DNA from: Squalus acanthias
Lineage: Eukaryota
Assembly (NCBI GenBank): GCA_030390025.1
Contig: JASTWF010000080.1
Coordinates: forward strand, 62,001 to 126,000
Length of the DNA: 64,000 nucleotides
Reading direction: 5' to 3'
The notes under the pieces were generated by a model that was not told where the DNA came from, searched no databases, and saw only the letters and a program-made list of their open reading frames with translations. Position 1 is the first letter of the stretch, and each line of letters opens with the position of its first letter. The position numbers and the translations under genes are program-made. Positions 5,025-61,200 of the stretch are shown here, one piece after another.

Positions 5025-5031
5025 CTTGGTT

Positions 5032-6357: not shown

Positions 6358-6504
6358 GTTGTCTCTAGAGACTTAAATCTGGGTCTTAGTACCACTGTCA
6401 GTAAAACACTCCTTCTATACTTAACAATATACGAGATGGATATAGATATAAATATAAGTAGATGGTTCTGTATCAACTCATTAACACACACGTTGGTCGC
6501 CAAC

Positions 6505-7927: not shown

Positions 7928-7984
7928 GCGTCGGTGAGGATGTGAGTGTGTGTGGCGGGTTTGATGCTTGACATTATGCCTGGT

Positions 7985-8300
7985 CTGTGCTCCCAGTACT
8001 GGAGATTCCCCACACTCACTCTGTCCCTCAGTTCTACATTCCTCTCTCTCACTCTCTCCTCTCAGTGCCCTGTGCTCCCAGTACTGGAGATTCCCCACAC
8101 TCACTCTGTCCCTCAGTTCTACATTCCTCTCTCTCACTCTCCCCTCTCAGTGCCCTGTGCTCCCAGTACTGGAGATTCCCCACACTCACTCTGTCCCTCA
8201 GTTCTACATTCCTCTCTCTCACTCTCTCCTCTCAGTGCCCTGTGCTCCCAGTACTGGAGATTCCCCACACTCACTCTGTCCCTGAGTTCTACATTTCCCG
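7985..8300. repeat. 85-bp tandem repeat in the intron after the TM exon (also 38447-38645 and 59312-59680)
   Basis: Unit starts CTGTGCTCCCAGTACTGGAGATTCCCCACACTCAC at 7985, 8070, 8155 and 8240. Confidence 0.9.
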
Positions 8301-8316
8301 TCTCTCTGATTCTTAC

Positions 8317-8430
8317 CTCTCCGTTGTTTTATCCAGATGAATATTCCGAATATCCCGATTATAACCAGTGCCGCAACTAATGCCATTATAATTCCAGGAT
8401 GGGAGCATGCACCACTGTTTTTCGGTATTT
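8317..8430 (-). CDS. MHC class I gene 1 connecting peptide/TM exon
   Basis: [38 protein letters not shown]; tttcag acceptor, gtaaga donor. Confidence 0.85.
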
Positions 8431-11400
8431 CTGAAACACATTTGAATAATATCAGGATAGTCTCTCTGTTCCCGGATCTATTCCCAGTTCTGTGTCGACG
8501 GAGGGACAATTTTAACCTCACCCGCCCATCGGGAATCTGAGGGATCGGGTCCAACGCTGGTTTTACTCTCGCCTGATCTCACTCTCCATTGGAGTCAATA
8601 AAGAGTCTCATTGATGGTGGTGTTGGACCAGCGTTGCCCCGATCTCCGGGGTTACCTGCCCGGCGAGCTCGGTTCAATTTACCCCCCATGTCTCTGTGTC
8701 CTGTCCTGGGTCCATCCCCAGGGTCACATTGTACGCCCCAGGAGTCAGCATCATTGACGGATTTCGCATCAAACTTCAAAGGGATGGGGAATAAATTGAC
8801 TGCAGCAAACTGGGCTGAGCTGGTAATGAGTAAAGCTACAGATAAACAGTGGGAACGCTTCAAAAAAGTACCGGGTACAATCCAACACCAGGACTTTCCC
8901 CGACAACGCAAAGACTCCACTTCTGTAGTTAGGCAACCATGGTCGACAAATGAAAGAAGTGAGAGTATCCAGGTAAAGGGAAAGGCTGACACAGTGACCA
9001 GAGATTGAGATACAGAGCACTTAGACAAGTATCGGCTGAACAGAGAGTCAGCATGGATTTGTGAAGGGTAGGTCCTGTCTGACTAATCTAATTGAATTTT
9101 ATGAGGAGGTCACTAACATGGTGGATAAGGGAGTGTCGGTGGATGTTGTGTATATGGACTACCAGAAGGCATTTGATAAGGTTCCTCACATGAGATTATT
9201 AGCAGAAATAAAAGCTTACAGAATTGGAGCTAATCTTGTGACATGGGTTGAAAATTGGCTGGGAGGAAGGAGGCAGAGAATCGGGATAAAGGGAATGTGC
9301 TCCGATTGGCAGGATGTTCCGAGTGGTGTTCCCCAGGGATCTGTACTGAGGCCTCAGCTTTTCACCATATATATCAATGACTTGGATGAAGGAACAGGGA
9401 GTTGTATATCCAAGTTTGCAGATGGCACTAAGTTAGGAGGCACAGTAAAGGGACATTGACAGATTAAATGACTCAACCGCATCTGCCACAGTTTTGCCCA
9501 AGGTGGGGAAGTGTGAGATCATCCATGCGAGATCTGAGAAAGACAGATTGGAATATTGTCTCAATGGTGACAGACCAGGAGCTGTAAAGGAGCAAAGAGA
9601 TTTGGGTGTCCATGTCCACAAATCACTAAAAGCTCGTGCCAGGGTTAAATAAAGCAATCAAAAAGGCTAACAGAATGTTGGCCTTTATCTCAAGAGGGTG
9701 AGAATAGAAAGTGGGGAAATTATGCTTCAGTTGTACAGACCCTTGGTCAGACTCCATCTGGCGTATTACATTCAGTTCTTGGCACCAAACCTCACGTAAG
9801 ATATATTGGCCTTGGAGTGGGTACAGAGCAGATTCACCAGAATGATACCAGCTCAGAGGGTTAAATTTTGAGGACAAAGTTGGCTTGTATTGCGCTGAGC
9901 GTAGAAGGGTGAAGGGTGATCACATTGAGGTGTTTAAAATGATAAAGGGATTCGATAGGGTAGATACAGAGAAACTATTTTCACTGGTGGTGAATCCGGA
10001 ACAAAAGAGCATAATCTTAAAATTGGAGCCAGGACAGTTAGAGTGAAATCAGAAAGCACTTCTTCACACAAAGGGCAGTGGAAATCTGGAACTCTCTCCC
10101 CCAAAAGTCTGTGGGTTCAATTGAAATTTTTATGACTGAGATCGAGTGATTTTTGTTGGGTTAGGGAATCAAGGGATGTAGAGCAATGGTGGCTAAATGG
10201 AGTTGAGGTACTGATCAGTCATGATCTCATTGAATGGTGGAACAGACTCAAGGGGCCGAATGTCCTACTCCTGTTCCTATGTTCCATACATGCTCACAGA
10301 GACACGCACACATCCAGTGCAGTTCCTTACCCCACCGATAGACCTTTGCCTCTGCCAGGCTGCTGTGTTCAATTTGACAGGAGTATTGATCCTCATCCCC
10401 AGCATTCACTTCAATCTCTTTCTTGATCTGATGGGTCCCATTGTGGTTCGGTCGAACCCCCGAGGAGTGGCTCTCAGACATTGGCTCTCCATTCCTTAGC
10501 CAGGTCACCTCGATGTCTACAGGGTAAAATCCAGTAACCAGGCAGGAGAGAGTAGGCAGTTTGTACTGACTATTGGGGTCACTTCTGGAGATGAACACTT
10601 CGGGCTGAACTGAAAGGGGAAAGGGAGAAAACACAAACAGCAGACTGACACCGAATGGAATGGGAGAACGGTTTCATAGATCTGTGAAGTTAGATCAGAA
10701 CATGGGAAAAAACTGAAATCAATACCTTTCCTTTCAAAATATTCCTTTCCAGCTCGCAAATATAAATGTAAATACTCAACAAATCCTTCTTCCAGATGTG
10801 TTTTCCAATACTTGTTCCAGGATTCATCCGAATTCCATTTTTCCTTAGTCTTCACTGCATAGTGATTGGATGCGACCCATCTCATTCTGTCTGGCTCTAA
10901 ACTAAGATAGTCCTTTCCGTCATATCCAACACGCATCGATCTCTTAACGGAGCCGTCGTCAGTTATTTCAGCAATTGAAATCCATTGAAAAATGTGAACT
11001 CCTGTCAGTGACCAAACAGGGATCAATAATCAATAATCAATAGTTCATAGAAAATCACAAATCAGTCTGATCAGAGGGGAAAGGGGCTGCAGAATCAGAT
11101 AGAAATGGGGGGTTAGAGTCACAGTCTGATCAGAGGGGAAAGGGACTGTAGTATCAGGGGGAAATGGGGGGTTAGAGTCACAGTCTGATCAGTGGGGAAA
11201 GGGACTGCAGAATCAGGTTTAATATCAGAAGGATTTCCCAGTGGAAGGTGATTCTTGGACTTTTAGCGGCGAGTTCACAGACCAGCCTGAACCGTCCTGT
11301 TAATGGGCAGTGTTTGAACTGAATGATTATTGGGAATTGGGCAGACATCCATTATGGTACCCAACCACGAGAGTTGAATCCCTCGAGTGTATGCAAAGGG

Positions 11401-23400: not shown

Positions 23401-26400
23401 GATGGGCTGAGTGGAGTGTCCCAGGGATCAGTGCTGGGAGATCGGTTGATTGGAGTGTCCGAGGGATCAGTGCTGGGGCCTGAGTTGAGTGTCCCAGGGA
23501 TCAGTGCTGGGAGATGGGCTGAGTGGAGTGTCCCAGCGGTCAGTGCTGCGAGATGGACTGAGTGGAGTGTCCCAGGGGTCAGTGCTGGGAGATGGACTGA
23601 GTGGAGTGTCCCAGGGATCAGTGGTGGGACATGGACTGAGTGGAGTGTCCCAGGGGTCAGTGCTGGGAGATGGGCTGAGTGGAATGTCCCAGTGGTCATT
23701 GCTGGGAGATGGACTGAGTGGAGTGTCCCAGGGATCAGTGCTGGCAGATGGGCTGAGTGGAGTGTCCCAAGGATCAGTGCTGGCAGATGGGCTGAGTGGA
23801 GTGTCCCAGGGATCAGTGCTGGGAGATGGACTGAGTGGAGTGTCCCAGGGGTCAGTGCTGGGAGATGGGCTGAGTGGAGTGTCCCAGGGATCAGTGCTGG
23901 GAGATGGGCTGAGTGGAGCGCTAGACATTGACCAGTACACATGGTTAAAAGGTCATTGCTTCAGCAGGAACATCGACGCCTCCTCCCAACACGCATGCTC
24001 GTTAGTGTTACGATCTGTTGAATGCTCTCCGCACATTCTCCATCCATGAGTGAGTGCCTCTGTCCCTAATAGTCTTCACTGCCTTAACTCTCTGAGGTAT
24101 TTATCACAGAGAGTCCCATTCTCCTTTCACACTGCCTCCTGGATTGGCATTGCCCATTCTGCTCTACTGGAGAAGACCGATCTCACCCCCAGATATATGA
24201 ATATACACCGAGACACAAAAAGAAGCCAGGAATTGCCCAACAAGCTTCCCTTTCCTGGATGGTCTCAACCATCTCACCATATTCTCAACTTGCTCTATCG
24301 CAAACCTCTCCTGATCTTCGTCAATGTGGACAGAACTTTGTAAATATCTCGATCAGAACAGGGAGAAGGAACAGAATAACCGTCTGTGTGTCCCTGATTC
24401 TTGGTGGCCATACACTATACAGTCCAGTGTTAGAATGCAGTATAACTATGGCTGGGTACCTGTCCGGCACCCATTAAACAGGGCAGGCAGTGGGAGATTC
24501 TGCTGATCTTACCGGATGTCTGGTTTGTCCCCTTCATTATCGTATTCAGATTCTCCTTTGCCATGCCTGACCGTGTGTTCCCGAGAACTGTGAGAACATC
24601 CCAGCATTCCACATCGCAAGCGTCTGCCATGAACTGCTGCCTGGGGATCATCCGACGGATATCAGTGTCATGATAATTAAGTTGAACTCCCTTCACCATC
24701 GCAACATTAGTAACCTCGGGAAAGTCACTGATGCCAAAGATTGCTGTGTACATCACAGTAAGTGAGTTAGTGTCTGTAAAATAAACAATTAAAGGGACAG
24801 ATTAATAGTCATAGGGGTAAAAATTAGGTCGCGCCCCATTTGGGGCGCAAATATCGTCTGGACGCAAATATTAGCGCCTGGCGCTAATTATCGGCACTGA
24901 CTGGAAACTTCACTTTTAACGCCCCGGGAGGTGAGTGGAGCGCTAAATCAGGCGCTGCACACCTGTCTTAAGGCGCAAAGGCCGAGCAGTGAGGCGCTAA
25001 CTCAGAGCGCTGGCGAAGCTCATGTAATGTCAGTCAGCAATGGAACACACACACAATGGCACGGGCCAGTTCTTAAAGGGGATGGTTAATCTTGCTTTCC
25101 ATCCACATCCTGTTCATTGCAGCCTTGAATCTCGGCCTGGAGAGACTTGCACATCAAATGTGCTGGAAAGAACAATGGAGAGTACCAGGCAAAGAGCTCA
25201 GAGTGCAGCTCCCACAGTCTCTGCTAAATCGATACAAGGAATGGCAAATCAAAATGAACCTGCAAAGTGCTGCTCAGTACCCAAAACTCCTTCACACAAC
25301 GTTGAATCTGTCCAGAAGTCTCTCCCTCTCTCTCTCAGAATGCGTAGTTCAAAAATGCCACCAACAATAAAAGACAGGAAGAGGCCCCCTTTAAATAGCG
25401 CCCCCCCCAGCCCCACAGCGATTGATAGCGTTCCAGTCTTCTGGTCGTTGGATGCGCCAGGCGGTAAGGCAGGGGGCGCCACTCAATTTCCGCTCCGGGG
25501 CGCCACAAGGGCATTGCACCATGGAATGACGTCACAATCTGCGCGTGCAGGTGGTCGCAGCGGTAAGTTTTAGCGCCGCCGCACAATGTCAAGTTAAGTT
25601 CCCGAGCGGCGCAAACATCGCTGCGCCCGGGCGTTAGCGGCTTTGCGCCCCATTAGCGCCCTCTTAAGGCGCTAACGGGAGGCGCAACCAACTGAATTTT
25701 TACCCCAAGATCTCTAAGCTGGAACAGTAACCTGGGACACACCCGGTCTATCTCTAACCAAGGAACAGTAACCTGGGACACACCCGGTCTATCTCTATCC
25801 TGGAACAGTAACCTGGGACACACCCGGTCTATCTGTAACCAAGGATCAGTAACCTGGGACACACCCGGTCTATCTCTAACCTGGAACAGTAACCTGGGAC
25901 ACACCCGGTCTATCTCTAACCTGGAACAGTAACTTGGGACACACCCGGTCTATCTCTAACCTGGAACAGTAACCTGGGACACACCCGGTCTATCTCTAAC
26001 CTGGACCAGTAACTTGGGACACACCCGGTCTATCTCTAACCAGGAACAGTAACCTGGGACACACCCGGTCTATCTCTAACCAGGAACAGTAACCTGGGAC
26101 ACACCCGGTCTATCTCTAACCTGGAACAGTAACTTGGGACACACCCGGTCTATCTCTAACCAGGAACAGTAACCTGGGACACACCCGGTCTATCTCTAAC
26201 CTGGAACAGTAACCTGGGACACACCCGGTCTATCTCTAACCTGGAACAGTAACCTGGGACACACCCGGTCTATCTCTAACCTGGAACAGTAACCTGGGAC
26301 ACACCCGGTCTATCTCTAACCTGGAACAGTAACCTGGGACACACCCGGTCTATCTCTAACCTGGAACAGTAACCTGGGACACACCCGGTCTATCTCTAAC

Positions 26401-28803
26401 CTGGAACAGTAACCTGGGACACACCCGGTCTATCTCTAACCTGGAACAGTAACCTGGGACACACCCGGTCTATCTCTAACCAGGAACAGTAACCTGGGAC
26501 ACACCTGGTCTATCTCTAATCAGGAACAGTAACCTGGGACACACCCGGTCTATCTCTAACCAGGAACAGTAACCTGGGAAAAAACCCGGTCAATCTCTAA
26601 CCTGGAACATTGACCTGGGATAAATCCAACTCTATCGGAAACTTAACCAGGGGACATCTGGAGAGAGATATTGAGGAGATCCTTCTGACCAGAGAACATC
26701 TGGAGAGAGATATTGAGGAGACCTTTCTGACCAGGGAACATCTGGAGAGGAATTGTGGATAACCCGAGGGCAGGTCTGTTGTTTATCGTCATAACCAGGA
26801 AACATGTGGGAATAAAAATTCGATTGCCCCGGAAAACGGGTGCGGGGATCTCAACGCGCAATCAACCCACACCCGGTCAAAGTACTGCAGGAAGCACGCA
26901 AACTTCGTGCTGTCTGGTAAATATGATTGTAACGTGCAGCCAACGCTTAACATGCTGCTGAGAGGCTGCATGCCTCAGCAGGGGGCCCAAGTTCTTGCGA
27001 GGCTAGCACCACTTAAAGCTAGCCTGCACTACTTAAAGCCAGCCTGCACGTCTTAAAGGGGAGGTGCATTCTGGCTGCAGCAGGTACTGGAAGTCATTGT
27101 AGAGGTGTATGTGACCTACAGGTAGAATGAAGATGATGCAACATGGCAGAGAGGGCTCCCAGATTTTCTGATGCAGTACTCGAGGGCTCCCAGATTTTCT
27201 GATGCAGTACTCGAGGGCCTGGTGCAGCAGGTGGACAGGAGGAGAGATGTCGCTGAATCCACAGGGGACCAGGAGGCCCTCCAGACAAACTGTGAGAAGG
27301 CAATGGGAGCAGAAAGCCGTCGTGGTCAATGCCAGCAGGGCAAGAAGTTTAATGACCTCACGCCAGTGGTCACGGTCAGTGAATTCATCTTCAAATGCCA
27401 CATCCTTACAACTGAACCACTGCTCAATTCATCACCCGCCCCTCCTTCACTCTCACCTACCAACAAACTCCATCAATCACGATTCATACCTCACATTCAT
27501 AGCACCACCTCACCCTCACAAACTTAGCACTGCTGAACCCTCACACCCACAGCTCACACCTTGCACACACTGCCAGCTATTCAACCATGACAGCCACATC
27601 ACCCAAACACAAGGTGGATACAAACTACTGCACCCATGTCTGGGAGCAACTAATCTAAGCAGAAGCCTTGAAGTAAGCTGCCACACCAATCCCTGGAGAC
27701 GTCAGCAACTTCAAATAAGATAACAAACCACCAAACACTTCTACAAACTCACCAAGAGCCAGTAGAAATCAATCAGCACCTAACCTGAAAGCAGTTGATG
27801 GTCCCTTTAAATAGCGCTGGTGGGCGGTCCTCCCAGCATGTTCAGCTGTGTGTCTTTAAGAGAGGGCGTTAGCTGGAGTGTGGAGCTCAAAAATGGCAGC
27901 GCTGGTGTCAAATCACCATTACACACTGACTGACGTCACGATCTGCCTACCCTGCAAACTTCCGACGCACACTCCCAGCGCCCGCGCTAACAAACTACCC
28001 AAAATGGTGTCCGCGCGGCCCACACCAGAAGTGGGTGCGCGTGGCGCGGAATCCATTTTAGACACAAAACGCCACCCGTAGCACCAAAAAACCGAGCGCT
28101 ACCGAGTCGAATTTCGCGGCCGCGGTGAGAGAGAATTCAGAAATGAACAGAAGGGAAACAGTGATATTTGGGAAGATGAAGTGCGTTGCCATGGGGTGCG
28201 GTCACTCTAGGAACAGTCTGACTGTCGACCAGGGGTGATGGACAATCAGGGGCAGCAGCTCCACTGTGCTTCACAGATCCTGTAATGACCACTTTACACA
28301 TGGGCAGTAGGGGCCCAAAGGATGTTGGTGGTGGATTGTCTGAGATAACCTGGCCTATTCAACCACGAGGGCATCACAGCTGAGCCTGGCGTGGGTTAAA
28401 CATGGATTATCCTCCCCGCACAGTTCAGAACACTTTAGTCCAGGAGAGGTGAAGCTGTTTCCCGTCTCCCAAACAACGTGAACATTAAAATTGCCCATTT
28501 CAACCATTTTCCACTTGCTACAAGCCTCCCTGCTCTCTGTATTCCTGCGTGTTGCTGTCAGGAGGCCTGCACACAACTCCCACCGCAGGCTGACGGCCTG
28601 TGCTGGCTCCAATGGTGTGAAATATCAGGCAGGATGTAGAACCGGCGGCCGATCAAACATCACCCTTTTCAAACTCTCGCCAAAAGCTCAAAATCACCCA
28701 CACACAGAGAGAGAGAGAGAGTGAGAATGGAGGGATGAGTTCTGTACTTACCGGAAGAGATCCAGGAAAAACACAGGGATATGGAGAAAAGGATCAGCAA
28801 CAT
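8317..28803 (-). CDS. Nonclassical MHC class I heavy chain, gene 1 (multi-exon; the paralogous cytoplasmic exon is missing)
   Basis: Exons: leader 28752-28803, alpha1 24513-24773, alpha2 10726-11001, alpha3 10331-10609, TM 8317-8430. All have GT-AG boundaries, phase 1, and open frames. Confidence 0.88.
8770..10285 (+). mobile_element. Degenerate CR1 LINE in the alpha3-TM intron of gene 1
   Basis: NFKGM..NW..QW..FK; [16 protein letters not shown]...[11 protein letters not shown]...[19 protein letters not shown]...SKFADGTKLGG; CR1-type 3' end CCTGTTCCTATGTTCC. Confidence 0.85.
10331..10609 (-). CDS. MHC class I gene 1 alpha3 (IgC1) exon
   Basis: VQPEVFIS...[21 protein letters not shown]...PNHNGTHQ...[10 protein letters not shown]...W; 279 nt. 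Confidence 0.93.
10726..11001 (-). CDS. MHC class I gene 1 alpha2 exon
   Basis: GVHIFQW...[10 protein letters not shown]...W.A...TKEKWN...[12 protein letters not shown]; 276 nt. Confidence 0.92.
11055..11215. repeat. ~60-bp tandem repeat in intron 2 (also 41045-41265 and 62585-62865)
   Basis: AGAGTCACAGTCTGATCAGAGGGGAAAGGGACTGTAGAATCAGGGGGAAATGGGGGGTT units. Confidence 0.85.
11439..23918. repeat. 12.5-kb array of a 39-bp satellite (with 34-bp variants) in intron 2 of gene 1
   Basis: Consensus GAGTGGAGTGTCCCAGGGATCAGTGCTGGGAGATGGGCT, roughly 320 units. Confidence 0.97.
24513..24773 (-). CDS. MHC class I gene 1 alpha1 exon
   Basis: DTNSLTVMYTAIFGISDFPE...IPRQQFM...WD...NQTS with the conserved N86 glycan site; 261 nt. 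Confidence 0.9.
24814..25706. mobile_element. 893-bp non-autonomous TIR element in intron 1 of gene 1
   Basis: Ends GGGGTAAAAATT...AATTTTTACCCC; paralog at 44343-45235. Confidence 0.75.
25712..26750. repeat. 40-bp minisatellite followed by a short 42-bp repeat, intron 1 of gene 1
   Basis: CTGGAACAGTAACCTGGGACACACCCGGTCTATCTCTAAC tandem units. Confidence 0.95.
26809..28121 (+). mobile_element. Harbinger-derived non-autonomous element with a Myb/SANT-like gene remnant
   Basis: Imperfect TIRs (GG.....AAATTCGA); flanks GTG/GCG (perfect GTG TSD in the paralog); frameshifted RAPRFSDAVLEGLVQQV..RR / RRQW..V.VNA / KKFNDL. Confidence 0.7.
28752..28803 (-). CDS. MHC class I gene 1 leader exon
   Basis: MLLILFSISLCFSWISS + G|GTAAGT. 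Confidence 0.85.
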
Positions 28804-37805: not shown

Positions 37806-37859
37806 AAAAAGTCACAAATACGTCAACAGGGGGAAAGAATCGAAACTTCACTTACTGAA

Positions 37860-40800
37860 TCACAAAGGAGCCGGCACAGAGACATCAGAAGCTGAGAAAA
37901 TAAAACAGAATGTGAGAAATGGGAATAAAATATATAAATAGAGAATGTGAGATATTCTACATCACTGACTGGGCCCAGGAGCCAATCACCTCCCAGCAAT
38001 AACTAAACAGACTCACAAATGATAAATGTGCACAGAGACAAGGGACTGGAGGGCGAGGGACTGGAGAGCGAGGGACTGGAGGACGAGGGACTGGAGGGTG
38101 AGGGACAGGAGAGCGAGGGACTGGAGGGGGAGGGACTGGAGGGGGAGGGACTGGAGGGCGAGGGGCTGGAGGGCGAGGGGCTGGAGGGCGAGGGGCTGGA
38201 GGGCGAGGGGCTGGAGGGCGAGGGGCTGAACGGCGAGGGACTGGAGAGCGAGGGACTGGATGGCGAGGGACTGGAGGGCGAGGGACTGGCGGGCGAGGGA
38301 TTGGAGTTTGAGGGACTGAAGTTTAAGGGACTGGAGGGCGCGGGATTGGTGTGAGTAACGCAGAGTGTAATAAATGTCAGTTGGAATGGGGATAACCCAT
38401 TATTAGAGTGTGAGCACACACCCAGTGTGAGGATCGGAGAGTGTGTACTCACTCTGTCCCTCAGTTCTACATTCCTCTCTCTCACTCTCTCCTCTCAGTG
38501 CCCTGTGCTCCCAGTACTGGAGATTCCCCACACTCGCTCTGTCCCTCAGTTCTACATTCCTCTCTCTCACTCTCTCCTCTCAGTGCCCTGTGCTCCCAGT
38601 ACTGGAGATTCCCCACACTCACTCTGTCCCTCAGTTCTACATTCCCTTCTCTCTGATTCTTACCTCTCCGTTGTTTTATCCAGATGAATATTCCAATTAT
38701 CCCGATTATAACCAGTGCAGCGACTGATCCAATTATAATTCCAGGATGGGAGCGTGCACCACTGTTTTCTGGTATTTCTGAAACACATTTGAATAATATC
38801 AGGATAGTTTCTCTCTTCCCGGATCCATTCCCAGTTCGGTGTCGATGGAGGGACAATTTTAACCTCGCTCGCCCGTCGGGAATCTGAGGGATCGGGTCCA
38901 ACGCTGGTTTTACTCTCGCCTGATCTCACTCTTCATTGGAGTCATTAAAGAGTCTCATTGATGGTGGTGTTGGACCGGCGTTGCCCCGATCCCCGGGGTT
39001 ACCTGCCCGGCGAGCTCGGTTCAATTTACCCCCCATGTCTCTGTGTCCTGTCCTGGGTCCATCCCCAGGGTCACATTGTACGCCCCAGGAGTCAGCATCA
39101 CTGATGGATTTCACATCAAACTTCAAAGGGATGGGGAATAAATTGACTGCAGCAAACTGGGCTGAGCTGGTAATGAGTAAAGCTACAGATAAACAGTGGG
39201 GTAGCTTCAAAAAAAGTACCGGGTACAATCCAACACCAGGACTTTCCCCGACAACGCAAAGACTCCACTTCTGTAGTTAGGCAACCATGGTCGACAAATG
39301 AAAGAAGTGAGAGTATCCAGGTAAAGGGAAAGGCTGACACAGTGACCAGAGATTGAGATACAGAGCACTTAGACAAGTATCGGCTGATCAGAGGGTCACC
39401 CCTCAGCCTTCTTTTTTCAAGTGAAAAGAGACCCAGCCTGTTCATCTTTTCCTGATATGTATAGCCTCGCATTTCTGGTATCATCCTTGTAAATCTTCTC
39501 TGCACCCTCTCCAGGCCTCTATATCCTTTTTATAATATGGCGACCAGAACTGTACGCAGTACTCCAAGTGTGGTCTAACCAAGGATCGATGAAGGTTTAG
39601 CATAACTTCACTACTTTTCCATTCTATCCCTCTAGAAATAAACCCTAGTGCTTGATTTGTTTTGATGGCCTTGTTACCTGTGTCGCAACTTTTAGTGATT
39701 TGTGTATTTTACGCCGAGATCCCTTTGTTCCTCTAACCCACCTCTGGCGTACTACATTCAGTTCTGGGCACCAAACCTCACGTAAGATATATTGGCCTTG
39801 GAAGGGGTACAGAGCAGATTCACCAGAATGATACCAGCTCAGAGGGTTAAATTTTGAGGAGAAAGTTGGCTTGTATTGCACTGAGTGTAGAAGGGTGAAG
39901 GGTGATCACATTGAGGTGTTTAAAATGATAAAGGGATTCGATAGGGTAGATACAGAGAAACTATTTTCACTGGTGGTGAATCCAGAACAAAAGAGTATAA
40001 TTGTACAATTAGAGCTCGGACATTTAGGAGTGAAATCAGAAAGCACTTCTTCACACAAAGGGCAGTGGAAATCTGGAACTCACTCTCCCAAAAGTCTGGG
40101 GGTTCAATTGAAATTTTTATGACTGAGATCGAGTGATTTTTGTTGGGTAAGGGTATCAAGGGATGTAGAGCAATGACGGGTAAATGGAGTTGAGGTACTG
40201 ATCAGTCATGATCTCATTGAATGGTGGAACAGACTCAAGGGGCCGAATGTCCTACTCCTGTTCCTATGATCCATACATGCTCACAGAGACACACGCACAC
40301 ATCCAGTGCAGTTCCTTACCCCACCGATAGACCTTTGCCTCTGCCAGGCTGCTGTGTTCAATTTGACAGGAGTATTGATCCTCATCCCCAGCATTCACTT
40401 CAATCTCGTTCTTGATCTGATGGGTCTCATTGTGGTTCGGTCGAACCCCCGAGGAGTGGCTCTCAGACACTGGCTCTCCATTCCTTAGCCAGGTCACCTC
40501 GATATCTACAGGGTAAAATCCAGTAACCAGGCAGGAGAGAGTGGGCGGTTTGTACTGACTATTGGGGTCACTTCTGGAGATGAACACTTCGGGCTGAACT
40601 GAGAGGGGAAAGGGAGAAAACACAAACAGTAGACAGACACCGAATGGAATGGGAGAACGGTTTCATAGATCTGTGAAGTTAGATCAGAACATGGGATAAA
40701 AACTGAAATCAATACCTTTCCTTTCAAAATATTCCTTTCCAGCTCGCAAATATAAATGTAAACTCTGAGCAAATCCTTCTTCCAGATGTGTTTTCCAATA

Positions 40801-43800
40801 CTTGTTCCAGGATTCATCCGAATTCCATTTTTCCTTAGTCTTCACTGCATAGTGATTGGATGCGACCCATCTCATTCTGTCTGGTTCTAAACTAATATAG
40901 TCCTTTCCGTCATATCCAACACGCATCGATCTCTTAATGGAGCCGTCGTCAGTTATTTCAGCAATTGAAATCCATTGAAAAATGTGAACACCTGTCAGTG
41001 ACCAAACAGGGATCAATAATCAATAATCAATAGTTAATGGAAAATCACAATTCAGTCTGATCAGAGGGGAAAGGGACTGTAGAATCAGGGGGAAATGGGG
41101 GGTTAGAGTCACAGTCTGATCAGAGGGGAAAGGGACTGCAGAATCAGGGGGAAATGGGGGGTTAGAGTCACAGTCTGATCAGAGGGGAAAGGGGCTGTAG
41201 AATCAGGGGGAAATGGGGGGTTAGAGTCACAGTCTGATCAGAGGGGAAAGGGACTGCAGAATCAGGTAGAAATATCAGAAGGGTTCCCAGTGGAAACTGA
41301 TTATTGGACTTTTGGCAGTGAATTCAGAGACCAGCCTGAACCTTCCTATTAATGGGCACAAGTTTAACGGAATGATTAATGGGAAATTGGGCAGAGATCC
41401 ATTATGTTACCCAACCAAGAGGGTTAATTCCCACTAGTGTAAGCAAAGGGGTAAATTCCCAGCACGGTAACAACATGAGTTAATTCCCAACACACTAACG
41501 GAAGGGGTTACTTCACAGAATGGAGTGTCCCAGGGGTCAGTGCTGGGAGATGGACTGAGTGGAGTGTCCCAGGGTTCAGTGCTGGGAGATGGGCTGAGTG
41601 GAGTGTCCCAGGGTTCAGTGCTATGGACTGAGTGGAGTGTCCCAGGGATCAGTGCTGGGAGATGGACTGAGTGGAGTGTCCCAGGGATCAGTGCTGGGAG
41701 ATGGGCTGAGTGGAGTGTCCCAGGGATCAGTGCTGGGAGATGGACTGAGTGGAGTGTCCCAGGGATCAGTGCTGGGAGATGGGCTGAGTGGAGTGTCCCA
41801 GGGATCAGTGCTGGGAGATGGGCTGAGCGGAGTGTCCCAGGGATCAGTGCTGGGAGATGGGCTGAGTGGAGTGTCCCAGGGATCAGTGCTGGAGATGGGC
41901 TGAGTGGAGTGTCCCAGGGATCAGTGCTGGGAGATGGACTGAGTGGAGTGTCCCAGGGATCAGTGCTGGGAGATGGACTGAGTGGAGTGTCCCAGGGATC
42001 AGTGCTGGGAGATGGACTGAGTGGAGTGTCCCAGGGATCAGTGCTATGGACTGAGTGGAGTTTCCCAGGGATCAGTGCTGGGAGATGGACTGAGTGGAGT
42101 GTCCCAGGGATCAGTGCTATGGACTGAATGGAGTTTCCCAGGGATCAGTGCTGGGAGATGGACTGAGTGGAGTGTCCCAGGGATCAGTGCTGGGAGATGA
42201 ACTGAGTGGAGTGTCCCAGGGATCAGTGCTGGGAGATGGGCTGAGTGGAGTGTCCCAGGGATCAGTGCTGGGAGATGGGTTGAGTGGATTGTCCCAGGGA
42301 TCAGTGCTGTGAGATGAACTGAGTGGAGTGTCCCAGGGATCAGTGCTGGGGGCTGAGTGGAGTGTCCCTGGGATCAGTGCTGGGAGATGGGCTGAGTGGA
42401 GTGTCCCAGGGATCAGTGCTGGGTGATGGGCTGAGTGGAGTGTCCCAGGGATCAGTGCTGGGAGATGGACTGAGTGGAGTGTCCCAGGGATCAGTGCTAT
42501 GGACTGAGTGGAGTTTCCCAGGGATCAGTGCTGGGAGATGGACTGAGTGGAGTGTCCCAGGGATCAGTGCTATGGACTGAATGGAGTTTCCCAGGGATCA
42601 GTGCTGGGAGATGGACTGAGTGGAGTGTCCCAGGGATCAGTGCTGGGAGATGAACTGAGTGGAGTGTCCCAGGGATCAGTGCTGGGAGATGGGCTGAGTG
42701 GAGTGTCCCAGGGATCAGTGCTGGGAGATGGGTTGAGTGGATTGTCCCAGGGATCAGTGCTGTGAGATGAACTGAGTGGAGTGTCCCAGGGATCAGTGCT
42801 GGGGGCTGAGTGGAGTGTCCCTGGGATCAGTGCTGGGAGATGGGCTGAGTGGAGTGTCCCAGGGATCAGTGCTGGGTGATGGGCTGAGTGGAGTGTCCCT
42901 GGGATCGGTGCTGGGAGATGGACTGAATGGAGTGTCCCAGGGATCAGTGCTGGGAGATGGGCTGAGTGGAGTGTCCCAGGGGTCAGTGCTGGGAGATGGG
43001 CTGAGTGGAGTGTCGCAGGGGTCAGTGCTCGGAGAAGGACTGAGTAGAGTGTCCCAGGGATCAGTGCTGGGAGATGGGCTGAGTGGAGTGTCCCAGGGTT
43101 CAGTGCTGGGAGATGGGCTGAGGGGAGTGTCCCAGGGATCAGTGCTGGGAGATGGGCTGAGTGGAGTGTCCCAGGGATCAGTGCTGGGAGATGGGCTGAG
43201 TGGAGCGCTAGACATTGACCAGTACACATGGTTAAAATGTCATTGCTTCAGCAGGAACATCGACGCCTCCTCCCAACACGCATGCACGTTAGTGTTACGA
43301 TCTGTTGAATGCTCTCCGCACATTCTCCATCAAGGAGTGAGTGCCTCTGTCCCTAATAGTCTTCACTTCCTGATCTCTCTGAGGTATTTAACACAGAGAG
43401 TCCCATTCTCCTTTCACACTGCCTCCTGGATTGGCATTGCCCATTCTGCTCTACTGGAGAAGACCGATCTCACCCCCAGATATATGAATATACACCGAGA
43501 CACAAAAAGAAGCCAGGAATTGCCCAACAAGCTTCCCTTTCCTGGATGGTCACAACCATCTCACCATATTCACAACTTGCTCTCTCGCAAACCTCTCCTG
43601 ATCTTCGTCAATGTGGACAGAACTTTGTAAACATCTCGATCAGAATAGGGAGAAGGAACAGAATAACCGTCTGTGTGTCCCTGATTCATGGTGGCCCATA
43701 CACTATACAGTCCAGTGTTAGAATGCAGTATAACTATGGCTGGGTACCTGTCCGGCACCCATTAAACAGGGCAGGCAGTGGGAGATTCTGCTGATCTTAC

Positions 43801-46800
43801 CGGATGTCTGGTTTGTCCCCTTCATTATCGTATTCAGATTCTCCTTTGCTGTGGTTGACAGTGTGTTCCCGACACCTGTGAGATATTCCCAGTATTCCAC
43901 ATCGAAAGCGTCTGCCATGAACTGCTGCCTGGGGATCATCCGACGGATATCAGTGTCATGATAATCAATTTGAACTCCCTTCACCATCGCAACATTAGTA
44001 ACCTCGGGAAAGTCACTAATGCCAGAGATTGCTGTGTATATCACAGTAAGTGAGTTAGTGTCTGTAAAATAAACAATTAAAGGGACAGGTTAATGAACAT
44101 TTACAAACACTGTTCAAAGTGAAGCCCATTCACACAATGAAACTCTCCAATAGTCCACCACTTTATCGCAACGTCTGAGATTATAAATATAATAGAATTA
44201 AACTGGGTCAGAATAGATGCCTGCAGCCCCTCCAAACAGGGAGTAAACATGGAATCAGAGTCACTGAGAAGCCCGATGGAGTCCGTGAGGAGATGTGGGA
44301 GAGTCTGGGACACATTCGAGGGGTTGTGGTGTGAAACAGAAGGGGGTAGAAATTAGGTCGCGCCCCATTTGGGGCGCTAATATCGTCTGGACGCAAATAT
44401 TAGCGCCTGGCGCTAATTATCGGCACTGACTGGAAACTTCACTTTTACCGCCCCGGGAGGTGAGTGGAGCGCTAAAGCAGGCGCTGTACACCTGTCTTAA
44501 GGCACAAAGGCCGAGGAGTGAGGCGCTAACTCAGAGCGCTGACGAAGCTCATGTAATGTCAGTCAGCAATGGAACACACACACAATGGCACGGGCCAGTT
44601 CTTAAAGGGGATGGTTAATCTTGCTTTCCATCCACATCCTGTTCATTGCAGCCTTGAATCTCGGCCTGGAGAGACTTGCACATCAAATGTGCTGGAAAGA
44701 ACAATGGAGAGTACCAGGCAAAGAGCTCAGAGTGCAGCTCCCACAGTCTCTGCTAAATCGATACAAGGAATGGCAAATCAAAATGAACCTGCAAAGTGCT
44801 GCTCAGTACCCAAAACTCCTTCACACAACGTTGAATCTGTCCAGAAGTCTCTCCCTCTCTCTCTCAGAATGCGTAGTTCAAAAATGCCACCAACAATAAA
44901 AGACAGGAAGAGGCCCCCTTTAAATAGCGCCCCCCCCAGCCCCACAGCGATTGATAGTGTTCCAGTCTTCTGGTCGTTGGATGCGCCAGGCGGTAAGGCA
45001 GGGGGCGCCACTCAATTTCCGCTCCGGGGCGCCACAAGGGCGTTGCACCATGGAATGACGTCACAATCTGCGCGCGCAGGTGGTCGCAGCGGTAAGTTTT
45101 AGCGCCGCCGCACAATGTCAAGTTAAGTTCCCGAGCGGCGCAAACATCGCTGCGCCCGGGCGTTAGCGGCTTTGCGCCCCATTAGCGCCCTCTTAAGGTG
45201 CTAACGGGAGGCGCAACCAACTGAATTTTTACCCCAAGATCTCTAAGCTGGAACAGTAACCTGGGACACACCCGGTCTATCTCTAACCAAGGAACAGTAA
45301 CCTGGGACACACCCGGTCTATCTCTAACCAGGAACAGTAACCTGGGACACACCCGGTCTATCTCTAACCTGGAACAGTAACCTGGGTCACACCCGGTCTA
45401 TCTCTAACCAGGAACAGTAACCTGGGACACACCCGGTCTATCTATAACCAGGAACAGTAACCTAGGACACACCGCGTCTATCTCTAACCTGGAACAGTAA
45501 CCTGGGACACACCCAGTCTATCTATAACCAGGAACAGTAACCTAGGACACACCCGGTCTATCTCTATCCTGGAACAGTAACCTGGGACACACCCGGTCTA
45601 TCTGTAACCAAGGATCAGTAACCTGGGACACACCCGGTCTATCTCTAACCTGGAACAGTAACCTGGGACACACCCGGTCTATCTCTAACCTGGAACAGTA
45701 ATTTGGGACACACCCGGTCTATCTCTAACCTGGAACAGTAACCTGGGACACACCCGGTCTATCTCTAACCTGGACCAGTAACTTGGGACACACCCGGTCT
45801 ATCTCTAACCAGGAACAGTAACCTGGGACACACCCGGTCTATCTCTAACCAGGAACAGTAACCTGGGACACACCCGGTCTATCTCTAACCTGGAACAGTA
45901 ACCTGGGACACACCCGGTCTATCTCTAACCTGGAACAGTAACTTGGGACACACCCAGTCTATCTCTAACCAGGAACAGTAACCTGGGACACACCCGGTCT
46001 ATCTCTAACCTGGAACAGTAATTTGGGACACACCCGGTCTATCTCTAACCTGGAACAGTAACCTGGGACACACCCGGTCTATCTCTAACCTGGACCAGTA
46101 ACTTGGGACACACCCGGTCTATCTCTAACCAGGAACAGTAACCTGGGACACACCCGGTCTATCTCTAACCAGGAACAGTAACCTGGGACACACCCGGTCT
46201 ATCTCTAACCTGGAACAGTAACCTGGGACACACCCGGTCTATCTCTAACCTGGAACAGTAACTTGGGACACACCCAGTCTATCTCTAACCAGGAACAGTA
46301 ACCTGGGACACACCCGGTCTATCTCTAACCTGGAACAGTAACCTGGGACACACCCGGTCTATCTCTAACCTGGAACAGTAACCTGGGACACACCCGGTCT
46401 ATCTCTAACCAGGAACATTAACCTGGGACACACCCGGTCTATCTCTAACCTGGAACAGTAACCTGGGACACACCCGGTCTATCTCTAACCAGGAACAGTA
46501 ACCTGGGACACACCTGGTCTATCTCTAATCAGGAACAGTAACCTGGGACACACCCGGTCTATCTCTAACCAGGAACAGTAACCTGGGAAAAAACCCGGTC
46601 AATCTCTAACCTGGAACATTGACCTGGGATAAATCCAACTCTATCGGAAACTTAACCAGGGGACATCTGGAGAGAGATATTGAGGAGACCCTCCTGACCA
46701 GGGAATATCTGGAGAGAGATCTTGAGGAGATCCTTCTGACCAGAGAACATCTGGAGAGAGATATTGAGGAGACCTTTCTGACCAGGGAACATCTGGAGAG

Positions 46801-48854
46801 AGGAATTGTGGATAACCCGAGGGCAGGTCTGTTGTTTATCGTCATAACCAGGAAACATGTGGGAATAAAAATTCGATTGCCCCTGAAAACGGGTGCGGGG
46901 ATCTCAACGCGCAATCAACCCACACCCGGTCAAAGTACTGCAGGAAGCACGCAAACTTCGTGCTGTCTGGTAAATATGATTGTAACGTGCAGCCAACGCT
47001 TAACATGCTGCTGAGAGGCTGCATGCCTCAGCAGGGGGCCCAAGTTCTTGCGAGGCTAGCACCACTTAAAGCTAGCCTGCACTACTTAAAGCCAGCCTGC
47101 ACGTCTTAAAGGGGAGGTGCATTCTGGCTGCAGCAGGTACTGGAAGTCATTGTAGAGGTGTATGTGACCTACAGGTAGAATGAAGATGATGCAACATGGC
47201 AGAGAGGGCTCCCAGATTTTCTGATGCAGTACTCGAGGGCTCCCAGATTTTCTGATGCAGTACTCGAGGGCCTGGTGCAGCAGGTGGACAGGAGGAGAGA
47301 TGTCGCTGAATCCACAGGGGACCAGGAGGCCCTCCAGACAAACTGTGAGAAGGCAATGGGAGCAGAAAGCCGTCGTGGTCAATGCCAGCAGGGCAAGAAG
47401 TTTAATGACCTCACGCCAGTGGTCACGGTCAGTGAATTCATCTTCAAATGCCACATCCTTACAACTGAACCACTGCTCAATTCATCACCCGCCCCTCCTT
47501 CACTCTCACCTACCAACAAACTCCATCAATCACGATTCATACCTCACATTCATAGCACCACCTCACCCTCACAAACTTAGCACTGCTGAACCCTCACACC
47601 CACAGCTCACACCTTGCACACACTGCCAGCTATTCAACCATGACAGCCACATCACCCAAACACAAGGTGGATACAAACTACTGCACCCATGTCTGGGAGC
47701 AACTAATCTAAGCAGAAGCCTTGAAGTAAGCTGCCACACCACTCCCTGGAGACTTCAGCAACTTCAAATAAGATAACAAGCCACCAAACACTTCTACAAA
47801 CTCACCAAGAGCCAGTAGAAATCAATCAGCACCTAACCTGAAAGCAGTTGATGGTCCCTTTAAATAGCGCTGGTGGGCGGTCCTCCCAGCATGTTCAGCT
47901 GTGTGTCTTTAAAAGAGGGCGTTAGCTGGAGTGTGGAGCTCAAAAATGGCAGCGCTGGTGTCAAATCACCATTACACACTGACTGACGTCACGATCTGCC
48001 TACCCTGCAAACTTCCGGCATACACTCCCAGCGCCCGCGCTGACAAACTACCCAAAATGGTGTCCGCGCGGCCCACACCAGAAGCGGGTGCGCGTGGCGC
48101 GGAATCCATTTTAGACACAAAACGCCACCCGTAGCACCAAAAAACCAAGCGCTACCGAGTCGAATTTCGCGGCCGTGGTGTGAGAGAATTCAGAAATGAA
48201 CAGAAGGGAAACAGTGATATTTGGGAAGATGAAGTGCGTTGCCATGGGGTGCGGTCACTCTAGGAACAGTCTGCCTGTCGACCAGGGGTGATGGACAATC
48301 AGGGGCAGCAGCTCCACTGTGCTTCACAGATCCTGTAATGACCACTTTACACATGGGCAGTAGGGGCCCAAAGGATGTTGGTGGTGGATTGTCTGAGATA
48401 ACCTGGCCTATTCAACCACGAGGGCATCACAGCTGAGCCTGGCGTGGGTTAAACATGGATTATCCTCCCCGCACAGTTCAGAATACTTTAGTCCAGGAGA
48501 GGTGAAGCTGTTTCCCGTCTCCCAAACAATGTGAACATTAAAATTGCCCATTTCAACCATTTTCCACTTGCTACAAGCCTCTCTGCTCTCCGTATTCCTG
48601 CGTGTTGCTGTCAGGAGGCCTGCGCACAACTCCCACCGCAGGCTGACGGCCTGTGCTGGCTCCAATGGTGTGAAATATCAGGCAGGATGTAGAACCGGCG
48701 GCCGATCAAACATCACCCGTTTCAAACTCTCGCCAAAAGCTCAAAATCACCCACACACACAGAGAGAGAGAGTGAGAATGGAGGGATGAGTTCTGTACTT
48801 ACCGGGAGAGACCCAGGAAAAACACAGGGATATGGAGAAAAGAATCAGCAACAT
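37860..48854 (-). CDS. Nonclassical MHC class I heavy chain, gene 2 (apparently complete)
   Basis: Exons: leader 48803-48854, alpha1 43801-44061, alpha2 40716-40991, alpha3 40320-40598, TM 38664-38777, putative cytoplasmic exon 37860-37891 ([10 protein letters not shown]). GT-AG boundaries, phase 1, no stops. Confidence 0.9.
38040..38350. repeat. 15-bp G-rich repeat (GAGGGCGAGGGACTG); expanded paralog at 58457-59215
   Basis: Direct inspection; lies in the intron before the cytoplasmic exon. Confidence 0.9.
38664..38777 (-). CDS. MHC class I gene 2 TM exon
   Basis: [38 protein letters not shown]. Confidence 0.87.
39118..40270 (+). mobile_element. Rearranged CR1 remnant in the gene 2 alpha3-TM intron, with an opposite-strand CR1 fragment at 39394-39741
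   Basis: Paralogous to 8770-10285; the minus-strand piece reads [36 protein letters not shown]. Confidence 0.8.
40320..40598 (-). CDS. MHC class I gene 2 alpha3 exon
   Basis: IgC1 domain with both cysteines; 279 nt. Confidence 0.93.
40716..40991 (-). CDS. MHC class I gene 2 alpha2 exon
   Basis: GVHIFQW...[23 protein letters not shown]; 276 nt. Confidence 0.92.
41519..43205. repeat. 39-bp satellite array in intron 2 of gene 2 (~1.7 kb)
   Basis: Same unit as 11439-23918. Confidence 0.96.
43801..44061 (-). CDS. MHC class I gene 2 alpha1 exon
   Basis: DTNSLTVIYTAISGISDFPE...FDVEYWEYLTGVGNTLSTTAKENLNTIMKGTNQTS; 261 nt. Confidence 0.9.
44343..45235. mobile_element. 893-bp non-autonomous TIR element in intron 1 of gene 2
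   Basis: TIRs GGGGTA.AAATT; 3-bp TSD AAG (44340-44342 / 45236-45238). Confidence 0.78.
45241..46800. repeat. 40-bp minisatellite plus 42-bp repeat, intron 1 of gene 2
   Basis: Same unit as 25712-26750, with more copies. Confidence 0.95.
46862..48174 (+). mobile_element. Harbinger-derived element with a Myb/SANT remnant, copy 2
   Basis: GTG TSD at 46859-46861 and 48175-48177; near-identical to 26809-28121. Confidence 0.72.
48803..48854 (-). CDS. MHC class I gene 2 leader exon
   Basis: MLLILFSISLCFSWVSP + G|GTAAGT. Confidence 0.85.
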
Positions 48855-58277: not shown

Positions 58278-61200
58278 TCACAAAGGAGCCGGCACAGAGA
58301 CATCAGAAGCTGAGAAAATAAAACAGAATGTGAGAAATGGGAATAAAATATATAAATAGAGAATGTGAGATATTCTACATCACTGACTGGGCCCAGGTGC
58401 CAATCACCTCCCAGCAATAACTAAACAGACTCACATGATAAATGTGCACAGAGACAAGGGACTGGAGGGCGAGGGACTGGAGGGGCAGGGGCTGGAGGGC
58501 GAGGGACAGGAGGGGCAGGGGCTGGAGGGTGAGGGACTGGAGGGTGAGGGACAGGAGAGCGAGGGGCAGGGCCTGGAGGGCGAGGGACTGGAGGGCGAGG
58601 GACTGGAGGGGGAGGGACTGGAGGGGGAGGGACTGGAGGGCGAAGGGCTGGAGGGCGAAGGGCTGGAGGGCGAAGGGCTGGAGGGCGAAGGGCTGGACGG
58701 CGAGGGACAGGAGGGTGAGGGACAGGAGAGCGAGGGACTGGAGGGGGAGGGACAGGAGGGCGAGGGACAGGAGGGGCAGGGGCTGGAGGGCGAGGCACTG
58801 GAGGGTGAGGGACAGGAGGGCGAGGGACAGGAGGGCGAGGGACTGGATGGGGAGGGACTGGAGGGGGAGGGGCAGGAGGGGCTGGAGGGCGAGGGTCTGG
58901 AGAGGGAGGGGCTGGAGGGCGAGGGACTGGAGGGCGAGGGGCTGGAGGGCGAGGGGCTGGAGGGCGAGGGACTGAACGGCGAGGGACTGGAGGGTGGAGG
59001 ACTGGAGGGCGAGTGGCTGGAGGGCGAGTGACTGGAGGGCGAGGGACTGGAGGGCGAGAGGCTGGAGGGCGAAAGGCTGGAGGGCGAGGGACTGGAGGGC
59101 GAGAGGCTGGAGGGCGAGAGGCTGGAGGGCGAGGGACTGGAGGAGAGGGGCTGGAGGGCGAGGGGCTGGAGGGCGAGGGGCTGGAGGGCGAGGGACAGGA
59201 TGGCGAGGGTCTGGTGTGAGGATCGGAGAGTGTAATAAATGTCAGTTAGAATGGGGATAACCCATTATCAGAGTGTGAGCACACACCTAGTGTGAGGATC
59301 GGAGAGTGTGTACTCACTCTGTCCCTCAGTTCTACATTCCTCTCTCTCACTCTCCCCTCTCAGTGCCCTGTGCTCCCAGTACTGGAGATTCCCTACACTC
59401 ACTCTGTCCCTCAGTTCTACATTCCTCTCTCACTCTCTCCTCTCAGTGCCCTGTGCTCCCAGTGCTGGAGATTCCCCACACTCGCTCTGTCCCTCAGTTC
59501 TACATTCCTCTCTCTCACTCTCTCCTCTCAGTGCCCTGTGCTCCCAGTACTGGAGATTCCCCACACTCACTCTGTCCTTCAGTTCTACATTCCTCTCTCT
59601 CACTCTCTCCTCTCAGTGCCCTGTGCTCCCAGTACTGGAAATTCCCCACACTCACTCTGTCCCTCAGTTCTACATTCCCCTCTCTCTGATTCTTACCTCT
59701 CCGTTGTTTTATCCAGATGAATATTCCAATTATCCCGATTATAACCAGTGCAGCGACTGATCCAATTATAATTCCAGGATGGGTACGTGCACCACTGTTT
59801 TCCGGTATTTCTGAAACACATTTGAATAATATCAGGGTAGTCTGTCTTTTCCCGGATCCATTCCCAGTTCGGTGTCAACGGAGGGATAATTTTAACCTCA
59901 CCCGCCCGTCGGGAATCTGAGGGATCGGGTCCAACGCTGGTTTTACTCTCGCCTGATCTCACTCTCCATTGGAGTCAATAAAGAGTCTCATTGATGGTGG
60001 TGTTGAACCGGCGTTGCCCCGATCCCCGGGTTACCTGCCCGGCGAGCTCGGTTCAATTTACCCCCCATGTCTCTGTGTCCTGTCCTGGGTCCATCCCCAG
60101 GGTCACATTGTACGCCCCAGGAGTCAGCATCACTGATGGATTTCACATCAAACTTCAAAGGGATGGGGAATAAATTGACTGCAGCAAACTGGGCTGAGCT
60201 GGTAATGAGTAAAGCTACAGATAAACAGTGGGGTAGCTTCAAAAAAAGTACCGGGTACAATCCAACACCAGGACTTTCCCCGACAATGCAAAGACTCCAC
60301 TTCTGTAGTTAGGCAACCATGGTCGACAAATGAAAGAAGTGAGAGTATCCAGGTAAAGGGAAAGGCTGACACAGTGACCAGAGATTGAGATACAGAGCAC
60401 TTAGACAAGTATCGGCTGATCAGAGAGTCAGCATGGATTTGTGAAGGGTAGGTCCTGTCTGACGAATCTAATTGAATTTCATGAGGAGGTCACTAACATG
60501 GTGGATAAGGCAGTGTCGGTGGATGTTGTGTATATGGACTTCCAGAAGGCATTTGATAAGGTTCCTCACGAGAGATTATTAGCAGAAATAAAAGCTTACA
60601 GAATTGGAGCTAATCTTGTGACACGGGTTGAAAATTGGTTGGGAGGAAGGAGTCAGAGAATCGGGATAAAGGGAATGTGCTCCGATTGGCAGGATGTTCC
60701 GAGTGGTGTTCCCCAGGGATCTGTACTGAGGCCTCAGCTTTTCACCATATATATCAATGATTTGGATGAAGTTTCACATTCTCACCACTCTCTGGGTAAA
60801 GAAGTTTCTTCTGAATTCCCTATTGGATTTCTTGGTGACTATCTTATATTGATGGCCTCTATGCTCTTCCCCACAAGTGGAAACATTCTCTCTGTATCCA
60901 CTCAATCAAATCCGGTCATAATTTTATAGACTCTATTAGGTCACCCCTCAGCCTTCTTTTTTCAAGTGAAAAGAGACCCAGCCTGTTCATCTTTTCCTGA
61001 TATGTATAGCCTCGCATTTCTGGTATCATCCTTGTAAATCTTCTCTGCACCCTCTCCAGGCCTCTATATCCTTTTTATAATATGGCGACCAGAACTGTAC
61101 GCAGTACTCCAAGTGTGGTCTAACCAAGGATTGATGAAGGTTTAGCATAACTTCACTACTTTTCCATTCTATCCCTCTAGAAATAAACCCTAGCGCTTGA

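Follow-up and report, generated by a model that had tools for sequence, protein, structure and literature searches.

A tandem cluster of three minus-strand MHC class I genes

The window, the whole 64-kb stretch of Squalus acanthias DNA that was analysed, contains three tandem MHC class I heavy-chain genes (A, B and C), all on the minus strand and carried by duplicated blocks that are 94-99% identical. Gene A runs from its leader at 28803 to its transmembrane exon at 8317 and gene B from 48854 to 37860. Of gene C, the window includes just the stretch between alpha2 (62540) and 58278; the leader and alpha1 fall past the window end. The following exons were assigned (all minus strand; residues in HLA numbering):

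28752..28803, minus strand, gene A leader exon (52 nt, ATG start, GT donor)
24513..24773, minus strand, gene A alpha1 exon (V7, C55, C59, G84, N86 sequon; weak Pfam MHC_I match)
10726..11001, minus strand, gene A alpha2 exon (276 nt, AG/GT ends, open frame; Pfam MHC_I E=6e-17; A101, F164, H159 and Y167, with T143, K146, W147 and Y171 kept and no Cys)
10331..10609, minus strand, gene A alpha3 exon (C1-set with its two Cys; the two flanking splice joints seen in RNA)
8317..8430, minus strand, gene A connecting peptide and transmembrane exon (downstream terminal cytoplasmic exon not found)
48803..48854, minus strand, gene B leader exon
43801..44061, minus strand, gene B alpha1 exon (V7, F55, Y59, G84, N86 sequon)
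40716..40991, minus strand, gene B alpha2 exon (no Cys; A101, F164, H159, S167)
40320..40598, minus strand, gene B alpha3 exon
38664..38777, minus strand, gene B transmembrane exon
37860..37891, minus strand, gene B terminal cytoplasmic exon, predicted by similarity together with an AG acceptor (10 residues followed by a stop)
62265..62540, minus strand, gene C alpha2 exon (no Cys; V101, F164, H159, D167)
61869..62147, minus strand, gene C alpha3 exon
59697..59810, minus strand, gene C transmembrane exon
58278..58309, minus strand, gene C predicted terminal cytoplasmic exon

AG/GT ends and phase 1 are common to all exons of the three genes, whose spliced frames are free of stops; in 14 exons neither stops nor frameshifts were found and the splice sites are all canonical. 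The class I exon plan (leader, alpha1, alpha2, C1-set alpha3, transmembrane, cytoplasmic) is followed, except that gene A is without the last cytoplasmic exon. A middle cytoplasmic exon as in relatives was searched for in A, B and C and not found, and there are no flanking genes beside the three in the 64-kb window. The alpha1-alpha2 intron is occupied by a 39-bp minisatellite with 325 copies in gene A (11439-23918), 44 in gene B (41521-43205) and at least 23 in gene C (63121-64000), and at least five further minisatellites are repeated in each duplicated unit. Short broken open reading frames of protein-like, envelope-like appearance are present in both units at 31000-33300 and 51000-53300 (minus strand); three of them had no Pfam match and the one at 32782-33045 had no usable Atlas match.

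Gene A peculiarities and neighboring elements

In gene A, the region 7927-8316 is devoid of the terminal-cytoplasmic-exon block that is present at 37807-38446 in gene B and at 58225-59311 in gene C. This gap is a deletion between two repeat arrays, either real or an assembly fault. Read-through of the transmembrane donor would, as computed, yield a tail of 34 residues. The alpha1 exon of gene A (24513-24773) further encodes two cysteines four residues apart, Cys55 and Cys59, at positions where gene B has Phe and Tyr, each by a one-base change. The pair was found neither in gene B nor in any family row of a 65-domain comparison and might form a substitute bond or a dimerisation site.

Downstream of gene A, a foamy-virus-like endogenous retrovirus is inserted on the minus strand (1178-7627). 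It is bounded by LTRs at 1178-2287 and 6505-7627 that are 91.8% identical and by a 4-bp target-site duplication, and its RNase H, integrase and SH3 open reading frames are interrupted by stops. The best match of the integrase was that of prototype foamy virus (E=1e-59). Insertion took place in a 61-bp minisatellite, and the units of genes B and C are without the element; spuma-type endogenous retroviruses are the topic of publications on cartilaginous fish. A LINE reverse-transcriptase fragment lies on the plus strand at 9040-9459, inside the alpha3-transmembrane intron of gene A.

Transcription of gene A

Four of 23 listed sequencing runs (X1, X2, X3 and X21) were aligned to positions 8300-11060, which cover the alpha2, alpha3 and transmembrane region of gene A. 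X1 to X3 were taken to be RNA by guess; X1 and X2 belong to one study, and X3 and X21 come from a related organism. The alpha3-transmembrane intron (1900 nt, GT-AG) was skipped in contigs of X1, X2 and X3 as well as in 17 raw RNA reads (11 starts) of X21, and the alpha2-alpha3 intron (116 nt, GT-AG) in one X1 contig and 14 reads (11 starts) of X21. Depth was zero inside the 116-nt intron in X1-X3. The alpha2 contig of X1 (211 nt) and its transmembrane contig showed no differences from gene A, while gene B differs from them at 6 and 10 places, respectively; a shorter alpha2 contig of X2 was likewise free of differences from gene A. These data show transcription and splicing of gene A or of one of its alleles. 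The preliminary description had named absence of transcripts as a sign of decay, and the spliced transcripts speak against it.

The alpha2 disulfide and the N-terminal peptide anchors are missing

HLA numbering was derived from two sources, the nearest relative aligned by HMMER with chicken BF2 structures and a published alignment that includes HLA-A2. It had been proposed beforehand that no cysteine occurs in alpha2 of any of the three paralogs, and the exon translations of A, B and C agree with this. The positions of C101 and C164 are occupied by other residues: position 101 is Ala in A and B and Val in C, and position 164 is Phe in all three. The replacement of Y159 by His and of W167 by Tyr (A), Ser (B) or Asp (C) was likewise confirmed, as was the retention of T143, K146, W147 and Y171 in all three proteins, to which a retained Y123 can be added. 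Position 59 is Cys in A and Tyr in B, as described before. The further alpha1 changes (Y7 to Val, Y/R84 to Gly) and the N86 sequon hold for A and B; their extension to all three paralogs was too wide, as alpha1 of gene C is situated outside the window.

Eight anchors hold the peptide ends in classical class I molecules: Y7, Y59, Y/R84, T143, K146, W147, Y159 and Y171 (PMC4364491). Gene A retains four of these and gene B five, which sets both apart from classical class I (UAA), as does the missing C101-C164 disulfide for A, B and C. Three of the four N-terminal tyrosines (7, 59, 159 and 171) are lost in A and two in B, because B keeps Y59. The sequences of A, B and C support the earlier view of a nonclassical class I molecule with a remodelled N-terminal (A-pocket) end; the non-standard ligand suggested along with it is plausible.

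A multigene family of sharks without the alpha2 cysteines

A search with the alpha2 exon returned 37 proteins among 44 candidates, all from sharks (11 species) and with 64-84% alpha2 identity. Two more searches brought the named members to 13 shark species, with whale shark, bamboo sharks, white shark and catshark among them. Other class I proteins were added from 50%-identity representatives (the best 150 of 2743). Alpha2 identity to gene B was 53-85% within the family vs at most 43% for everything else; among the matches listed, proteins of skate, sawfish and chimaera belonged to other lineages at about 35% identity or less. The family is an expanded one, with 10 white-shark and 7 catshark clusters at 90% identity, although isoforms and fragments may be among them. 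All 10 white-shark clusters lie on one sequence of 115.8 Mb and their accessions bracket that of beta2m, consistent with this sequence being the MHC chromosome; this indication of MHC linkage is an indirect one. The supplement of PMC10751288 places 16 MHC-Ib genes right after B2M on chr19, in rows that are unmatched to the family proteins.

The statement that the C101-C164 pair is nearly invariant in class I was borne out by a MAFFT count: among the 153 distinct alpha2 domains fetched from other class I proteins, C101 was present in 152, C164 in 146 and both in 145, vs none with both among 65 distinct domains of the shark clade. The absence of the alpha2 cysteines from A, B and C is not a chance event. 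In a larger recount of 88 distinct family alpha2 domains, C101 was found in none and C164 in seven; 82 domains had Val at position 101, and 60 had Leu, Phe or Tyr at position 164. The same recount gave both cysteines in 168 of 181 non-family domains, a figure depressed by pairwise misalignment, so that the MAFFT count was preferred. One apparent C101 in a family member (P0149, 1 of 65) was discarded as a mis-spliced alpha2 start and is absent from the 88-domain recount.

Other parts of alpha2 are strongly conserved in the family. The tryptophans W133 and W147 were present in all 88 domains, W156 in 87 and W152 in 85, and the anchors of the peptide C-terminus were retained in 54 (T143), 64 (K146) and 65 (W147) of 65 members. 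Q96, D119 and D122, which we take to be beta2m-contact or core positions, were kept in 85-87 of the 88 domains. Positions 59, 159 and 167 vary freely across the family. In alpha3 of A, B and C (10331-10609, 40320-40598 and 61869-62147), Asn replaces the usual Asp at about position 238, presumably near the beta2m interface, and thereby creates an N-glycan sequon that occurs in 7 of 86 family alpha3 motifs. The leader peptide of the UDA-type proteins P0106, P0107 and P0329 is essentially the same as that of the family, while the mature chains are about 37% identical, possibly reflecting a shared or converted leader exon.

Phylogeny of the separate domains

The per-domain phylogeny suggested in the preliminary description was run on alpha1-alpha2 and on alpha3. 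In the alpha1-alpha2 tree (70 rows, IQ-TREE; labels of UAA-, UBA-, UDA- and UGA-like rows taken from source names and by-eye comparison with the supplement of PMC10751288), A, B and C fell inside a shark-only multigene clade of 51 rows (support 100/100) that was separate from the UAA-, UBA-, UDA- and UGA-like rows. Within it they belong to a sublineage of nine rows (100/91) that is characterized by H159 and F164 and includes six other shark species. The 51-row clade also holds P0033, P0099 and P0027, which bear the motifs of a published nurse-shark reference. A motif check among the stored proteins found neither dogfish UCA nor UFA, and both were compared by eye only.

A, B and C thus nest in a shark-wide clade that has been described, and the suggestion of a new lineage was not upheld, as the clade holds orthologues of the nurse-shark reference. 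Since this reference and dogfish UCA are already without both cysteines in a published alignment, the lineage can no longer be called novel. The absence of the disulfide is visible in published reference alignments, and a literature search that had most subscription journals outside its reach found no written statement that these cysteines are missing from shark class I proteins.

In the alpha3 tree, built by quick search from 69 rows, the family was recovered (98) and rows within it grouped by species or order; A, B and C were placed with Pristiophorus and Heptranchias (97), as would suit a squalomorph host. Alpha1-alpha2 forms trans-species sublineages, and alpha3 is nearly identical within species. 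This pattern suggests that alpha3 has been homogenised within lineages, by concerted evolution or exon shuffling.

Assignment to UEA

UEA and UBA are named as the two expanded, multicopy class Ib families of sharks (PMC10751288; PMC12562908). Class I sequences reported earlier from cartilaginous fish are compiled in Supplemental File 10 of Verissimo et al. 2023 (PMC10751288). In the part examined, the UAA, UBA, UDA, UFA and UGA rows keep both alpha2 cysteines and a divergent UHA row does not. A nurse-shark sequence in the same file, labelled UCA, has V7 and V101, lacks C164 and is free of alpha2 cysteines altogether; the label UEA occurs nowhere in the supplement. By hand count, alpha2 of gene A is identical to this nurse-shark sequence at 61 of 92 positions (about 66%) and to Squalus acanthias UCA (AF515705) at 31 of 92 (about 34%), which is not the close similarity expected of UCA. 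UBA, a UAA-derived clade with both alpha2 cysteines, does not accommodate A, B and C, and neither do UDA, UFA and UGA, which are single- or low-copy and have both cysteines (UFA compared by eye only). A, B and C do share a clade with the orthologues of the nurse-shark sequence, the reference itself having been compared by eye only.

Our assignment to UEA was made by elimination, because the genes are multicopy, restricted to sharks and not UBA. The reading of the nurse-shark reference as UEA is itself inferred. Almeida et al. (J Immunol 207:824) reportedly found in 2021 that UEA occurs in sharks and is absent from rays and chimaeras. UEA is further described as related to dogfish UCA, as MHC-linked in a class Ib cluster beside beta2m and brd2, as having a more hydrophobic groove than UAA and as weakly expressed in tissues. 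A, B and C very probably arose by recent tandem duplication within the nonclassical shark class I family published as UEA.

Alternatively, the genes could represent a separate unnamed shark lineage or a dogfish-type UCA. The label UCA given to the nurse-shark relative in the supplement points this way, while the identities of about 34% to Squalus UCA and about 66% to the nurse-shark sequence point the other way. A separate lineage would also have to include the clade members of whale shark, bamboo sharks, white shark and catshark, and a large family is unlikely to have been overlooked, because the white-shark and catshark genomes have been surveyed for class I (PMC10751288). We regard this alternative as highly improbable.

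Predicted fold and groove

The nearest relative, P0003 (V101/F164), is 85% identical to gene B in alpha2 and 77% in alpha1. Its AlphaFold model has pLDDT values of 93-98 over alpha1-alpha3 and superimposes on chicken BF2 with TM scores of 0.91-0.94 and on nurse shark 6LUP with 0.88; YF1 and MR1 were also among the fold matches. The family is predicted to fold as ordinary class I, as judged from the model of this relative rather than of the window proteins. The input of AlphaFold is an alignment of class I proteins, which biases the result, and such a fold was expected anyway.

Groove hydropathy was calculated as the mean over 37 positions taken as the groove. Values were 0.34 for A, 0.43 for B and 0.33 for the family mean (n=58), compared to -0.05 and -0.13 for two UAA-like rows; A and B are in line with a UEA groove that is more hydrophobic than that of UAA. 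The values are below those of the UBA-like row (0.61) and of most UGA-like rows (0.36-0.85), so that the family ranks above UAA-like rows but is not the highest of the lineages compared, which argues against a simple hydrophobic-groove story.

Discussion

A, B and C are new genes of an already known shark lineage, in which the loss of the alpha2 cysteines is real, ancient and family-wide. The assignment to UEA together with an intact ligand-presenting role is probable, if less secure than the family assignment by itself. We propose a single loss of C101 in the ancestor of the family, after which C164 was mostly replaced. Hydrophobic packing of Val or Ala at 101 under Phe, Leu or Tyr at 164 would hold the alpha2 helix on the sheet in place of the disulfide, and the class I fold and beta2m binding would thereby persist. 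A nearly invariant aromatic wall of W133, W147, W152, W156 and Y/H155, together with T143 and K146, could anchor a ligand at the F/E end, in the C-terminal half of the groove. At the N-terminal end, positions 7, 59, 159 and 167 would no longer cap a free peptide amino group and would differ between paralogs. The cargo would most likely be a hydrophobic peptide-like ligand, overhanging or modified at its N-terminus, and presentation might be to innate-like T cells or NK-type receptors. This model of a C-terminally anchored, peptide-like ligand with an open, paralog-specific N-terminal end is favored tentatively, as one that could well hold but that we would not yet call probable. In HLA-A2, mutation of C101-C164 abolishes TAPBPR binding (PMC6926029); because the bond is needed there, we infer that folding without it requires compensation, and a loading route different from the TAPBPR-dependent one is possible in this family. 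A bolder version, unstated in print, would see the UEA/UCA clade as an old lineage with packing in place of the disulfide, a Trp-walled C-terminal anchor and an open N-terminal end that presents N-terminally extended or acylated microbial ligands independently of tapasin and TAPBPR. It is speculative and we consider it unlikely.

The same family might instead hold lipids or small hydrophobic or aromatic metabolites, comparable to CD1, YF1 or MR1, and nothing peptide-like. The Trp-rich groove of A and B, with two charged residues in 37 positions vs six in UAA-like rows, would suit such cargo, as would the loss of the N-terminal anchors and the appearance of YF1 and MR1 among the fold matches; moreover, UFA and UGA are reported to bind lipids (PMC12562908, citing a personal communication). 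The conservation of T143, K146 and W147 in 54, 64 and 65 of 65 family members is at odds with this, and the bulky tryptophans would presumably fill the groove and not deepen it. The best fold matches were the peptide-binding BF2 structures, although fold rank says little about the ligand. Lipids or metabolites are a possible but rather unlikely cargo. It is less likely still that there is no cargo at all, i.e. that the proteins serve as ligand-free stress or self markers (MIC/ULBP-like) or receptor decoys and lost the disulfide as groove loading was unneeded. Loss of the bond and of most N-terminal anchors in a multigene nonclassical family would be understandable in this case, but the alpha1-alpha2 sublineages have been maintained across shark orders, in contrast to the homogenisation of alpha3 within species, and this suggests that the groove domains are under selection. 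Between A and B, differences occur at 7 of 37 groove vs 11 of 142 other positions (Fisher p=0.06), and pN in alpha1 is 0.077 vs a pS of 0.026 from small counts; both are suggestive only, and selection tests among the three paralogs were not significant or had too few changes.

The cysteine loss could also reflect relaxed selection in decaying genes, gene A especially, which is without the terminal cytoplasmic exon, has an endogenous retrovirus downstream and has acquired two new alpha1 cysteines. We give decay very little credence: the 14 exons are intact and canonically spliced, spliced transcripts of gene A exist, and the loss is common to the whole clade and far older than the duplication of A, B and C. 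For the family at large, the conservation seen across the 88 domains also speaks against decay. As the lineage is already known, its existence will not surprise specialists. It is still a natural experiment, in that a bond found in 145 of 153 sampled other class I domains and needed for chaperone binding of HLA-A2 is missing across an expressed, shark-wide family. Knowing the structure of one member and its ligand would explain the stability of a class I groove that has no disulfide, and would also reveal the cargo of the largest shark class Ib family. The function of the shark class Ib lineages is given as unknown in PMC10751288.

Comparison with known class I lineages

With UEA, the three genes share multiple copies, an occurrence in sharks only (in the present comparison) and the loss of most peptide anchors. 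They differ from the nurse-shark reference by belonging to a separate H159/F164 sublineage, from UEA by the Asn238 sequon in alpha3 of all three window genes and, in the case of gene A, by the added C55 and C59 and the missing last cytoplasmic exon. Squalus acanthias UCA (AF515705) resembles A, B and C in having no alpha2 cysteine; it has Val at 101 and Trp at 97, and it is without T143, K146 and W147, which A, B and C keep. Shark UAA (Triakis scyllium P0120; nurse shark 6LUP), UBA, UDA, UFA and UGA have the same exon plan, predicted fold and N86 sequon as A, B and C, and UAA also shares T143, K146, W147 and Y171. In contrast to A, B and C, these five lineages retain C101-C164, both in the published alignment and among the stored representatives; their alpha2 identity to the three genes is at most 38% and they form separate clades. 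Chicken YF1 and MR1, nonclassical molecules whose grooves are hydrophobic or aromatic, combine a class I fold with lost peptide anchors, as A, B and C do, at about 30% identity; the likeness is a functional analogy only and no orthology is claimed. Both presumably keep the alpha2 disulfide that the shark family has lost.
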